Of a DNA stretch of 64,000 bases, positions 24,248 to 59,938 are shown one piece after another. The stretch is taken from NCBI GenBank assembly GCA_000165345.1, contig CM000430.1, positions 704,001 to 768,000 on the forward strand, in the 5' to 3' direction. A program made the position numbers and the translations under genes. Under the pieces are notes generated by a model. That model worked only from the letters and a program-made list of their open reading frames with translations, was not told the DNA's origin and ran no database searches. Each line of letters begins with the position of its first letter. The stretch's first letter is position 1.

Positions 24248-24256
24248 CCGGTATAG
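24248..24256. promoter_or_regulatory. CCGGTATAG box 25 bp upstream of the Myb/CHY gene ATG.
   Basis: It is one of at least six CCGGTAT(A/G) or CTATACCGG occurrences, all in spacers. Confidence 0.35.
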
Positions 24257-24281
24257 CTTTATCGAAATTATTCAAGGAAAA

Positions 24282-26456
24282 ATGGTAGATGAAGACTCAA
24301 ACTCTTCTTTATCTCCATCTTCTAATTCGGAAATTACCAAAATCTCCAATGAATACCATGACCGTGGCAGTGGTAAGAAGAGAAGAACATTTAGCAGGGG
24401 GAGATTCAGAAAGCCAGGAGCGCATGGAAGCCATAAACCAGATATGCCCGGGCTTTCAGCACCAGGAGTTCCGGGAGGAGGTGAACCAGCATCAGTAATT
24501 TCAGAACCAGGTGCAGAAAACTCCAAAGGAAGCAAGTCTGAACCAAAGAACAATCGAAATCTTGGGGGAAGAAAAGACTTCCGTAAATACAGGAACAAGA
24601 AGGTTGACCCAAAAAAAGGCATTTCCAATGCAAAAGAAGGGGTAAGATCTGAATTCAATAAAAATGGCCGAGGTAATTTCGTAATGACGAAGCCAAAATA
24701 CAGTTGGGGGAATGAGTTCTCCAGACTTAGTAAGCTTTATGGGGCTAATATTATTGCAGAGGAGTTGGTTTGCGATGAAGATGAAAACAACAAGCCAACT
24801 GAAGAGAGAAAGAACGATGAAGTTGATGATTCTTTCAGAAAAACCTCAATAAAGTTGTCTTGCAAATATCAGCCAAGCGATCCAGATTTCCCTTTCTCAA
24901 AGCTGAGTGAATATAATATGCAAGATTCCAAGACAGAATTTTCTTCTCCTGAAAAATTTTCAATTTTAATACATATAACCATTCCATCAGGATATCCAAA
25001 AGAAAATATCGACCAAGTTGTTTTTGATACTCCAGAATACCAGTATGTGAGTTCCAAGTTTAACGAAGCTTTTCAAGAATGTATTTCAAAATCTTCCTTG
25101 ACTTCAAATCCAATTTATGAAGCTCTTAAGACATTTGATAGGAATTTTTCAGAATTAGTTTTAAATGGACTTCCTTCAATAGAATCTATTAATGAATTTA
25201 TTCTTTTGAACTGGACTCCTGGGGAGCAAAAGCTTCTAGAAGAGGCAATTTGCTATTACAAGTATACAAAGGACGTGAACAAGAAATGGATTGAGATTGC
25301 CAATCATGTTGGTAATGGAAAGACTGTTAAACAGTGCATTGACAGGTATAAGTATTGTAGGTCTTTAGTGGTCAATAAAGAATCAGAGAAAAAAACCATA
25401 ATGGGGGAGGAAAGTGATGTACAATACGCCACCAATGAATCAAAAGTTGATGATGGACTTTTGTATTCAGAAAAGGATGGTCTCGATAAAACACCAGTGG
25501 AAGAATTGAGCAGATTAAATTTGATGAATTATGAGAATTTGCTCATTAATGGTTTGGAAATTTTTTCTATTGATTTAATTTTGATTGCAATTCTGAGGCT
25601 TCAAATTTATTGCTCAAGATGTAATGAGGTGAATGATTATAAACCAATAAGTATTCCAAGTAACCATGATTTGACTTTAAATAACCAAGACGAAACAAGG
25701 GAATTGACTTTCTTGGATAATTTGGTGTTAGGTAACTCACAAAACTGTAAGAAATGTGGTTTAAAACATTCCATACACTTTTCACCACTAATATGCCATT
25801 CTAATGATATAAAAATTGGGAAGATCGAATTTTCTGAATGCTCATTGAGAGATATTTTACCTTCAGATATTCTTGTCTCATGCTCAAACTGCAGTAATTT
25901 TCTGAGGATTAGAGAGTTCTTTGTGGGGAAGCAGTATTCAGTGAACTGTAGAAATTGTTTTAAAGAACTGAAAATTAAGGCAGATGGTTTAATTGTTGGG
26001 AATGAAATATTTAATGTTGACAAAAGCACAGATTTTTTGCTTGCTGAATTGAATAATATGAAAAAGTTCAAAAAAAAGATTAATAAGGATACAAAGCTTC
26101 CCACAGCTGTTGGTACCCCTCTTCCTTCAAATGGAACTTGCTCACATTATAAGAAATCCAATCGTTGGAACAGATTTCCTTGCTGTAATAAAGCCTATCC
26201 GTGCCATGAGTGTCATGATAAGGATAATCCTGATCATAAGTTTGAATGGGCAAAACAAATGATTTGTGGATTTTGTAGTAGAGAACAGGGATTCTCTGAA
26301 AATTGTAAATATTGCCGTGCAAATCTGACAGGTAAATCAGGTAATGCATCTGGAAGATTCTGGGAAGGAGGTAAAGGGTGTAGAAATCCTCTTACTTTGA
26401 GTAATCGTGATAGCAGAAAACGAAAGCTGATTTCTCGACAACTCAAAAAGACTTGA
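24282..26456 (+). CDS. Protein with a Myb/SANT-like domain and a C-terminal CHY-type zinc finger.
   Basis: The N-terminus is basic and low-complexity. A SANT/Myb-like segment is WTPGEQKLLEEAICYYKYTKDVNKKWIEIANHVGNGKTVKQCIDRYKY. The C-terminus CSHYKKSNRWNRFPCCNKAYPCHECHDKDNPDHKFEWAKQMICGFCSREQGFSENCKYC matches the CHY zinc-finger pattern of Pirh2/RCHY1-type proteins. I see no RING. Confidence 0.7.
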   Translation: MVDEDSNSSLSPSSNSEITKISNEYHDRGSGKKRRTFSRGRFRKPGAHGSHKPDMPGLSAPGVPGGGEPASVISEPGAENSKGSKSEPKNNRNLGGRKDFRKYRNKKVDPKKGISNAKEGVRSEFNKNGRGNFVMTKPKYSWGNEFSRLSKLYGANIIAEELVCDEDENNKPTEERKNDEVDDSFRKTSIKLSCKYQPSDPDFPFSKLSEYNMQDSKTEFSSPEKFSILIHITIPSGYPKENIDQVVFDTPEYQYVSSKFNEAFQECISKSSLTSNPIYEALKTFDRNFSELVLNGLPSIESINEFILLNWTPGEQKLLEEAICYYKYTKDVNKKWIEIANHVGNGKTVKQCIDRYKYCRSLVVNKESEKKTIMGEESDVQYATNESKVDDGLLYSEKDGLDKTPVEELSRLNLMNYENLLINGLEIFSIDLILIAILRLQIYCSRCNEVNDYKPISIPSNHDLTLNNQDETRELTFLDNLVLGNSQNCKKCGLKHSIHFSPLICHSNDIKIGKIEFSECSLRDILPSDILVSCSNCSNFLRIREFFVGKQYSVNCRNCFKELKIKADGLIVGNEIFNVDKSTDFLLAELNNMKKFKKKINKDTKLPTAVGTPLPSNGTCSHYKKSNRWNRFPCCNKAYPCHECHDKDNPDHKFEWAKQMICGFCSREQGFSENCKYCRANLTGKSGNASGRFWEGGKGCRNPLTLSNRDSRKRKLISRQLKKT

Positions 26457-26558
26457 ATTGATAATGGTTATTAAGATCCAAACATTTATTTTTTTTGGAT
26501 TTCTCGACCTTTTGTTTGGCTATAATAAGAAAGAAAAAACCAAATATTATAAAAATAT

Positions 26559-58150: not shown

Positions 58151-58209
58151 TAACAATACAAATAAAAAGAAAGTGTAGGAAAAAAGATCGAATCTTATAT
58201 CTAATATTA

Positions 58210-59769
58210 TTAAACAATAGAATCTAATAAGTTTGAATAATCTTTGCTAAATAAATTCATTGATTGTATAAGAATATCTGCAGGACTATTAATATTTAAA
58301 ATACCATCTTCTTTTTTCAATGATTTTTGAATAAATTCTGACAATGTTCTTCTCCAAAATTTTGTACCAGAAAACCCATGAAATATACCAAATACTGGTT
58401 TTAAATACATATTTAATTCTCCTATAGTAAATTGACCTTGATCTTTAATATTTCTTGGCTTAAATTTAGATAAATATTCTACATATCTTTCCAATACAAT
58501 CCTTCTTGTTAAGTGAATACTACTATTATTACCATTAGTATTAATACAATTATTATTATTATTATTATTATTATTAACTTGATTATAATTAATCCCATAA
58601 ATCATACTATCTACTTTTGATAATATAAATGGATTATTCATGACTTCTCTTCCTATCATGACTCCTTTTATCTTATTAATCCATTTACCTGATTGAATGA
58701 TTTGATATAAATTTTGATATTCTTGAGTTAATGTAAGATAAGAATTAGATGATAATGTTTCAATATGATGATCATCTTTCAAATGATCAGTTCTTATTTT
58801 CTTAATTTTTGTATAATTATTAATTTCTAATTCATTATCTTTTATATCATCTTTATAGTTATTTAAATACCATTGAATATACCAATCACCAGTTAATATT
58901 GAAATACATTCTTGTATACTTGTTACTCCTCCATTCAAAATAAATGTTAAATTAGGAAAATCAAGAGTTAACATATAAACCCAATAATATTTTAATTTTG
59001 GAATGGTTCTATTTTTACTAGGATTAATACCATTTAACCAAGCTTTTCTTGCATGTATAATAAATACATTGGCTCCTATAAAATTATTTTCTGTATAATC
59101 AATAGATTCTAATATATTTGAATCAGAATCATCATCAGATTGTGGAAATATACAAGAATAATCTTTTTTATTTTGATTATTTATATTACAACCAGATACT
59201 AATGATATAAAATTATATAAATGTTGATATGTATCATATTGATCAACTCCAATCCTAGTTTTAACTGATATACGTTTATTAACTAATCCCAAATGAATTA
59301 ATTTTTTGTTACATGTATCAACAATTTTTGCAACTCTAAGTGGATTTTTAAATAATGATGCACCAAAACTACCTTTAGAAGCTACTTTACATGATGGGCA
59401 TCCAACATTTAAATTAAAATTCTGAAAACCATATTTATAAGCTATTTCAATAGCTTTTTCCATTTTTTGAGGATTATTACCACCTAATTGTAATACTAGA
59501 GGATTTTCAATATCATTCTTTTTAAAATGTACATCTTGAAGAATTTTTCGTCTATTTTCATCATTATAACAATGTATGATTGTATCATCTACTACCATTT
59601 CTGTCCATAATTCTGTTTTTTTTGAGATAATTCTACATAACATTCTAAAATGACTGTTTGTAACATCAAGCATTGGTGCTACAGAAATTATTGAATTACT
59701 TAAATTATTATAAGTTGTCAATAATTTCTGTTTTTGTTCTTCTTCATTATATGATTGGTCATCCTTCAT
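58210..59769 (-). CDS. DUS: tRNA-dihydrouridine synthase (Dus family, DusA/Dus4-like).
   Basis: ISVAPMLDVTNSHFRMLCRII...LWTEMV, LVLQLGGNNPQKMEKAIEIA, NLNVGCPSCKVASKGSFGASLFKNP and ISVKTRIG match the Dus TIM-barrel FMN-site motifs. A poly-N insertion of about 60 aa lies in the C-terminal half. Confidence 0.85.
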   Translation of the reverse strand: MKDDQSYNEEEQKQKLLTTYNNLSNSIISVAPMLDVTNSHFRMLCRIISKKTELWTEMVVDDTIIHCYNDENRRKILQDVHFKKNDIENPLVLQLGGNNPQKMEKAIEIAYKYGFQNFNLNVGCPSCKVASKGSFGASLFKNPLRVAKIVDTCNKKLIHLGLVNKRISVKTRIGVDQYDTYQHLYNFISLVSGCNINNQNKKDYSCIFPQSDDDSDSNILESIDYTENNFIGANVFIIHARKAWLNGINPSKNRTIPKLKYYWVYMLTLDFPNLTFILNGGVTSIQECISILTGDWYIQWYLNNYKDDIKDNELEINNYTKIKKIRTDHLKDDHHIETLSSNSYLTLTQEYQNLYQIIQSGKWINKIKGVMIGREVMNNPFILSKVDSMIYGINYNQVNNNNNNNNNCINTNGNNSSIHLTRRIVLERYVEYLSKFKPRNIKDQGQFTIGELNMYLKPVFGIFHGFSGTKFWRRTLSEFIQKSLKKEDGILNINSPADILIQSMNLFSKDYSNLLDSIV

Positions 59770-59919
59770 AATTTAATTAATTTAGTTCAAATTTAACTAA
59801 TCTAATAGTAATAGTGACAATAACAGAAATTATTATTATTATTATTATTATTATTGTCGATATTCCATCAATATGTCAAAAATTACCATTTTTAAATAAT
59901 GAAAAAACAAAATATGAAA

Positions 59920-59938
59920 TGGCGCCCAAGCCGGTATA
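59920..59938. promoter_or_regulatory. GGCGCCCAAGCCGGTATAG composite box, about 150 bp upstream of the Dus gene start.
   Basis: E2F-like GGCGCC sits next to the CCGGTATAG box. Confidence 0.35.

Follow-up and report, generated by a model that had tools for sequence, protein, structure and literature searches.

A recurrent CCGGTA box in promoters of a Cryptosporidium parvum chromosome 2 locus, a candidate cis-regulatory element with turnover among species

We describe a short DNA box that recurs in the promoters of a 64-kb window of Cryptosporidium parvum chromosome 2 (cgd2_34xx–3580; GC ~29%), the window being the whole stretch of DNA analyzed. The 9-mer CCGGTATAG is present there in five exact copies, against 0.01–0.04 expected across the models used, and the feature is real and statistically robust. 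Judged from its sequence and distribution, it is most likely a functional cis-regulatory box so far uncatalogued for Cryptosporidium. To the more specific reading, that the box would be a cis-regulatory element of RNA polymerase II promoters in intestinal Cryptosporidium and most likely a sequence-specific transcription-factor binding site, we give a probability of about 0.6. This reading is favored because of the over-representation of the 9-mer, its restriction to non-coding DNA, its proximity to E2F boxes, its occurrence in both orientations and its orthologous retention with turnover.

Results

Over-representation and location of the box

The exact copies and the variants of the 9-mer are distributed in the window as follows.

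Site A, 24248..24256, plus strand: CCGGTATAG, 25 bp upstream of the ATG at 24282 of the Myb+CHY zinc-finger gene cgd2_3460
Site B, 37383..37391, minus strand: CCGGTATAG, 141 bp upstream of the cgd2_3500 ATG (37242), in the divergent spacer shared with SF3b2/Cus1 (cgd2_3510)
Site C, 55864..55872, minus strand: CCGGTATAG, left arm of an inverted pair; on its own strand the neighbor directly before it is ATTACGTGG(T)G
Site D, 55906..55914, plus strand: CCGGTATAG, right arm of the inverted pair, with GAGACAAT 10 bp upstream and CCCGCC 12 bp downstream
Site E, 59931..59939, plus strand: CCGGTATAG, 162 bp upstream of the Dus1 ATG (59769), on the strand opposite to the gene
One-mismatch variant, 13395..13403, plus strand: ACGGTATAG, non-coding, in the divergent spacer upstream of the SDA1 gene, with GGCGCC and GGCGGGC on its flanks
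Variant, 27622..27632, plus strand: CCGGTATTAAT (contains CCGGTATTA), abutting the annotated ATG of cgd2_3470 (27620, minus strand) in an unusually conserved divergent spacer
Palindromic variant, 44313..44322: ATACCGGTAT, non-coding, in the divergent spacer between the open reading frames (ORFs) 41761-43386 (minus strand) and 45112-52449 (plus strand)

Dinucleotide shuffles gave 0.03 expected copies of CCGGTATAG in the window, compared with the five observed. According to Markov models of order 1–3, 0.014–0.033 copies are expected in non-coding DNA, where all five lie, and 0.015–0.03 in coding DNA, where there is none. The Poisson tail, corrected over all 9-mers, is about 2e-6. Moreover, in an unbiased k-mer scan CCGGTATAG ranked first among the over-represented 9-mers of the window, above GCATGC-type words. 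The set allowing one mismatch has eight members, including the five exact copies, against 2.2 expected; one-mismatch variants as such occur at chance level. The variants at 27622 and 44316, each with two mismatches to CCGGTATAG, have CCGGTAT in common, and eight of the nine CCGGTAT 7-mers are non-coding, the coding counts matching expectation. An ORF of at least 869 codons at 1–2608 (minus strand), which extends past the left edge of the window, was treated as non-coding in the ORF-based map, so that the figures for non-coding enrichment are slightly conservative.

An earlier note on this DNA, made from the letters alone, had pointed out a recurrent 9-mer found only in spacers, with a first copy 25 bp from an ATG. 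Our counts bear out each of these points. Its positions for sites A to C were exact, and those for sites D and E (55907 and 59930) are here corrected by one; the inverted pair is perfect, as it had said, with a spacer of 33 bp instead of 34 bp. The two further sites that it had listed are variants of the 9-mer, the one at 44316 being half of the palindrome ATACCGGTAT at 44313–44322.

All box sites fall in spacers that contain at least one gene 5′ end, a regularity to be read with the fact that 3′–3′ spacers are tiny in the C. parvum genome. The distance to the nearest ATG goes from 1 bp (27622 variant) and 25 bp (site A) up to 598 and 881 bp (sites C and D). The orientation of the box is informative in two tandem spacers only, where site A points towards its gene and site E away from it. 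The five exact copies have no flanking sequence in common and are therefore not copies of one longer repeat.

The box and neighboring promoter elements

Three further features define the immediate surroundings of the exact sites.

E2F-like double box, 37433..37445, minus strand: GCCCGCCGGCGCC, 41 bp upstream of site B
Conserved core of the divergent Nsp1-nucleoporin/PrsW-protease promoter, 55811..55935, from alignments
E2F-like box, 59920..59926, plus strand: TGGCGCC, 4 bp from site E, with the same spacing in four species

An E2F-like box (GGCGCC, GGCGGG) lies at most 51 bp away from four of the five exact sites; among random non-coding positions, 14% have such a box within 60 bp. For site A, the nearest one is beyond 277 bp. 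The accessible promoter peaks of C. parvum sporozoites are marked by E2F motifs (bioRxiv 10.1101/2025.01.17.633476), which places the box in promoter cores. The adjacency to GGCGCC described in the earlier note was thus recovered, and that to GCATGC was seen at the variants 27622 and 44313 alone.

In the core at 55811..55935 the elements follow each other in the order E2F-like box (55813–55820), site C, CCACGTAAT (55875–55883), GAGACAAT (55888–55895), site D and E2F-like box (55927–55932). The element GAGACAAT(TT) at 55888–55895 is itself conserved in C. parvum, C. meleagridis, C. ubiquitum and C. felis, and in the orthologous C. ryanae spacer it is inverted, as ATTGTCTCG. As for CCACGTAAT, only two copies are found in the window (27704–27712 and 55875–55883), both in conserved promoter cores; the first is conserved in five species and the second in C. 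parvum, C. meleagridis, C. ubiquitum and C. canis. With its bZIP/bHLH-like ACGT core, CCACGTAAT is a candidate for a second box.

Upstream of cgd2_3500, the block 37400–37445 is made up of the double E2F-like box, a CACGTG box and TGACTGTGGGGAA. It reads CCGCCGGCGCCA..TGCA..TGATGCA.TTTTGA.TGTGGGGAA and is nearly invariant in four species. For site B itself, we also considered that GTATAG (G|GTATAG) might be the 5′ splice site of an upstream cgd2_3500 exon. This was rejected; the ATG at 37242 is also the start of the longer annotated protein.

Conservation of the box across species

Orthologous loci were compared from C. meleagridis (L001, L004), C. ubiquitum (L002, L006), chipmunk genotype I (L005), C. 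canis (L011, 55% GC), C. felis (L008, 45% GC), C. ryanae (L009, L010) and C. muris (L003), together with L007 (GCA_027243975.1, 50% GC, a sister accession of the C. canis assembly) and L012 (from a Logan assembly). Gene order at the locus is conserved in all Cryptosporidium species compared. The GC content of this same syntenic locus is 24–35% in C. parvum, C. meleagridis, chipmunk genotype I, C. ubiquitum, C. ryanae and C. muris, and 45–55% in C. felis, L012, L007 and C. canis. Short promoter boxes persist at the locus despite this shift.

Both C. meleagridis and C. canis (L011 13541) have site C unchanged, in the latter with the same ATTACGTGG neighbor; C. ubiquitum reads CAGGTATAA there. 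For site D, the exact 9-mer is found in C. felis (L008 13189), where GAGACAATTT upstream and GCCCGCC downstream are retained and orthology was checked by tblastn; the site reads CCGGTATAT in C. meleagridis and CCGGTACTA in C. ubiquitum. In C. canis and C. felis, the 9-mer survives amid largely diverged spacers of genomes with 45–55% GC, and our composition-based estimate of the chance expectation is ~0.005–0.008 per orthologous spacer in these two species. Because C. canis keeps one arm and C. felis the other, the inverted copies at 55864 and 55906 do not form a unit. In this PrsW/Nsp1 promoter at least one intact CCGGTA box is found in six of eight species, and the surviving copy differs, which is the usual signature of binding-site turnover under selection. 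Additionally, CCGGTA is among the few GC-containing 6-mers of the spacer that are kept in five of seven species.

Site E reads CCGGTACAG in C. meleagridis, CCGGTATCG in C. canis and CCGGTACCG in L012, and the module TGGCGCC-N4-CCGGTAYNG-N-GATC is kept there in C. parvum, C. meleagridis, C. canis and L012. In C. ubiquitum the box is lost at the aligned position. The same C. ubiquitum spacer (L002 9830–9839) has a perfect palindrome, TTACCGGTAA, ~35 bp from the lost site, and this may be a case of compensatory site turnover.

Site B has an exact match in C. meleagridis and in chipmunk genotype I, which reads AATACCGGTATAG; it is gone in C. ubiquitum, and no match was found in L007 or C. ryanae. 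Its loss in C. ubiquitum took place while the adjoining block with the E2F, CACGTG and TGACTGTGGGGAA elements stayed invariant. The orthologs of site A read TCGGTATAG (C. meleagridis), CTACTACAG (chipmunk genotype I) and CCGTTAGAG (C. ubiquitum), and the site is lineage-restricted and degenerate beyond C. meleagridis. The 27622 variant shows no change across C. parvum, C. meleagridis, chipmunk genotype I, C. ubiquitum and L007, and C. ryanae has lost it.

All instances taken together give the consensus CCGGTA-Y-N-G, in which the TATA part is the variable end. The conservation of the box appears, from these alignments, to be one of selective retention with turnover and not of universal constraint.

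Discussion

A putative transcription-factor binding site

If the box is a binding site, the recognized sequence would be CCGGTA-Y-N-G, with (A)TACCGGTA(T) as its palindromic form. We infer that a protein binds the box and that its binding affects transcription. The putative factor would act through the box in either orientation, inside a short promoter core and beside E2F/DP boxes. The asymmetric 9-bp word would fit a monomeric domain with multiple contacts, such as a three-finger C2H2 or a Myb-repeat protein, and the occasional palindromes would fit a dimer, for example of an ApiAP2 domain. The earlier note had offered two functions for the box, a binding site for a specific factor being one of them. 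The over-representation, the non-coding restriction, the E2F proximity, the use of both orientations and the retention in C. canis and C. felis all lend support to it.

Several observations weigh against a regulatory element of this kind. Averaged over the five sites, C. meleagridis keeps 42 of 45 positions, only marginally above the local background of 0.77–0.87 per base, and C. ubiquitum 32 of 45, which is not above its background of 0.58–0.72; the latter species, moreover, has lost sites B and E. The C. muris locus yielded no CCGGTA box, nor did the orthologous C. ryanae spacers; C. ryanae has one new palindromic site in another spacer. The box is not among the motifs reported by genome-wide studies of C. 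parvum, and so it is either not abundant genome-wide or was missed by their methods. Finally, the sample for the motif analysis is one 64-kb window plus its orthologous loci.

The alternative of a TATA-like or positional element

The other function proposed in the earlier note, a TATA-like core with a GC clamp, leads to a different explanation, in which the box is a positional core-promoter element that sets the start site and the direction of transcription. The motif does include the TATA tetranucleotide and is located upstream of genes, the start codons next to site A and the 27622 variant are so near that these two are close to or inside 5′ untranslated regions (UTRs), and the copies of the inverted pair each point outward to their own gene. 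However, the box has no fixed orientation, sites A and E being in conflict in the tandem spacers, and the distances to the ATG are spread over 1–881 bp. The inverted pair is not conserved either, C. canis retaining only site C and C. felis only site D. CCGGTA is kept across species while the TATA part, the least conserved, drifts (CCGGTAC, CCGGTAA, CCGGTATCG); TATAG is a poor match to TATAWAW, and the orthologs read TACAG, TATCG, TACCG and TACTA. These results speak against the TATA-like proposal, and we consider a positional core element improbable.

A possible partner of the E2F/DP box

The frequent vicinity of E2F-like boxes raises the question of whether the box is an obligate partner of the E2F/DP box, the two forming a composite site read by an E2F-associated complex, in a layout like the animal CDE-N4-CHR (cell cycle-dependent element and cell cycle genes homology region) bound by DREAM. 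Among Apicomplexa, E2F/DP has been retained by Cryptosporidium alone (PMC12246861). At site E, the E2F-like box and CCGGTA are exactly 4 nt apart, as in the animal tandem, and the TGGCGCC-N4-CCGGTA spacing is identical in four species spanning 29–55% GC; as described above, four of the five exact sites have an E2F-like box at 51 bp or less. Nevertheless, the 4-nt spacing is not seen at sites A, B, C and D. The other sites differ in both order and spacing (12, 41 and 43 bp, upstream or downstream), and site A is without an E2F-like box within 277 bp. A comparison of contexts over all sites found neither a shared partner box nor a constant E2F spacing. Additionally, E2F boxes are common in these promoters, so that proximity is partly expected. 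The second element also differs from that of the animal tandem: CHR has the sequence TTYGAA, to which the box is unrelated. An obligate partnership with E2F/DP seems to us unlikely on this evidence.

The alternative of a box without a function of its own

Another possibility is that the 9-mer has no function of its own, being a by-product of local composition or hitch-hiking in promoter cores that are constrained by neighboring elements. The spacer between boxes C and D is conserved at least as well as the boxes, several local spacers are highly conserved throughout, and in C. ubiquitum the motif positions are no better conserved than the background. These points speak for such an origin. On the other hand, an identical 9-mer in five unrelated contexts, >100-fold over expectation, and its exact survival within the mostly altered spacers of C. 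canis and C. felis are both against it, and we give little credit to a box devoid of function.

RNA-level signals and mobile elements as alternatives

Site A and the 27622 variant, located 25 and 1 bp upstream of start codons, are almost certainly transcribed, and the box could in principle be an RNA-level signal of 5′ UTRs, acting for example in translation or stability. We regard this as very unlikely, given that, taking the nearest gene as reference, the box is found on either strand (antisense at the 27622 variant and at site E), that sites C and D are 598 and 881 bp from the nearest ATG, and that no structured-RNA signal was seen. In fact, neither Rfam, nor tRNA searches, nor covariation supported a non-coding RNA in the C/D block or in the conserved spacer at 27.6 kb, and in the latter RNAalifold gave a positive (penalizing) covariation term, with compensatory pairs in 1 of 69. 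If the inverted pair at 55864/55906 were the remnant of a mobile element or dispersed repeat, its 9-bp arms being terminal inverted repeats, the perfect match of these arms 33 bp apart would be explained, but this is already contradicted by the flanks of the five copies, which share nothing, by the interior of the pair, which is a promoter block conserved orthologously in three species, and by the retention of a single arm in other species.

Comparison with known motifs

A 2025 review has only six upstream motif families in its list for Cryptosporidium, with the factor family mostly assigned by inference (PMC12246861). Published families comprise E2F, AP2_1 (TGCATGCA), AP2_2 (GCACAC), G-box, GAGA, CAAT-box and MAACTA (unknown motif). 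Like them, the box is a short over-represented word of compact upstream regions, and it is often in the same core as E2F. It matches no motif family or ApiAP2 binding motif tabulated in that review and is likewise without a match among the 25 motifs of Oberstaller et al. (2013). The strings CCGGTA, GGTATA or similar ones are absent from the motif catalogues that could be read, namely Mullapudi (2007), Cohn (2010), Oberstaller (2013) with its supplements, Oberstaller (2014), the 2021 study of long non-coding RNAs, Hasan (2024), the 2025 preprint on polycistrons and ATAC (assay for transposase-accessible chromatin) and the 2025 review. A full-text literature search for the 9-mer, its reverse complement or CCGGTA/TACCGG together with Cryptosporidium returned primers only.

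The Grainyhead/CP2 site, AACCGGTT, has the same central ACCGGT palindrome, but the flanks of the box are TA...TA instead of AA...TT. No member of the Grainyhead/CP2 family is known outside opisthokonts.

A close likeness was found in oomycetes. The M94 promoter motif of Phytophthora infestans is TACCGGTA (Roy et al. 2013, PMC3597505), motif-9 of Phytophthora, GTACCGGTA, lies upstream of 1,284 genes (Seidl et al. 2012, PMC3520976), and streme-5 of Plasmopara halstedii is ATACCGGTAT (PMC10031896). The core CCGGTA / TACCGGTA is common to both groups, and streme-5 is letter for letter the palindrome ATACCGGTAT at 44313–44322 of the window. Moreover, TTACCGGTAA or TACCGGTA forms are present in spacers of C. 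ubiquitum, C. ryanae and L012. In both groups these are orphan promoter motifs defined computationally, and both hosts belong to the SAR (stramenopiles, alveolates and Rhizaria) supergroup. There are also differences. The C. parvum form is mainly the asymmetric CCGGTATAG, only one of eight boxes being palindromic, and the five exact sites hold only the CCGGTA half of TACCGGTA; the oomycete motif goes with infection-stage and effector genes, whereas the C. parvum neighbors are of housekeeping type. The suggestion in the earlier note that the 9-mer is not a described element thus holds for the Cryptosporidium literature searched, but its palindromic form TACCGGTA/ATACCGGTAT has been published as an orphan promoter motif of oomycetes.

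We take the oomycete link as a lead provided by a word of 8–10 bp, and not as demonstrated homology. A bolder interpretation is that the CCGGTA box and the oomycete TACCGGTA motif are one ancient element, read by a single factor family inherited from a stramenopile/alveolate ancestor, with an E2F/DP partner at fixed spacing in Cryptosporidium; we hold this to be doubtful.

Other features of the window

The genes assigned by Pfam around the box sites are the following.

22683-23831: UCH hydrolase gene
24282-26456 (ORF): Myb+CHY zinc finger gene, cgd2_3460
30529-34356: ApiAP2 gene, cgd2_3490, female-specific
38043-39851: SF3b2/Cus1 gene, cgd2_3510 (locus tag confirmed)
52684-55266: Nsp1-type nucleoporin gene
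56795-58150: PrsW protease gene
58210-59769: Dus1 gene

Five of the eight long ORFs checked by exact protein sequence are identical to C. parvum Iowa II proteins, and the C. hominis ortholog of the ORF 60173–61975 bears the locus tag CHM_2g3580. No tRNA gene and no match to an Rfam family was found in the window. A search for homologs with the AP2 protein gave two matches only, being overwhelmed by low-complexity words. A blastn survey of conserved non-coding blocks, in which most matches were of low complexity, was used only qualitatively.

Two spacers are unusually well conserved. The divergent spacer 27621–27971 (cgd2_3470/cgd2_3480) has a mean column identity of 81% over five Cryptosporidium species, one of them with 50% GC. 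Among its invariant runs are TTTGCATGCATGCCGGTATTAAT, CAGGCGCCAACATGTACATGCATACATT, CCACGTAAT, AATCCCACAC and TTTCAAGTTAATGA, several of which are also present in C. ryanae. The spacer 29952–30528, upstream of the ApiAP2 gene cgd2_3490, keeps an identity of 78% (C. ubiquitum) and 85% (chipmunk genotype I) over >500 bp, and the identity of a typical spacer, ~0.58–0.68 per base, is far below this. A long UTR, dense regulatory sequence or an exon missing from the annotation could account for this.

The k-mer scan also brought up two in-frame tandem repeats within coding ORFs, at 42384–42440 (minus strand) and at 40386–40449; one has a 12-bp period that includes GCAGGACTA, with five repeats, and the other has repeated CTAGATCTA units.

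Implications for gene regulation in Cryptosporidium

Gene regulation in Cryptosporidium is poorly understood, and the box adds to it a candidate element conserved across intestinal species, located beside E2F boxes. It may serve as bait for a new regulator, either by oligonucleotide pull-down or on protein-binding microarrays with orphan C2H2, Myb and ‘non-binding’ AP2 proteins, and as an easy means of engineering promoters in transgenic parasites. Should the oomycete link be true, one experiment could assign a factor to motifs of two pathogen groups. If the box and the oomycete motif were indeed one shared ancient element, it would be a second general promoter code word alongside E2F.

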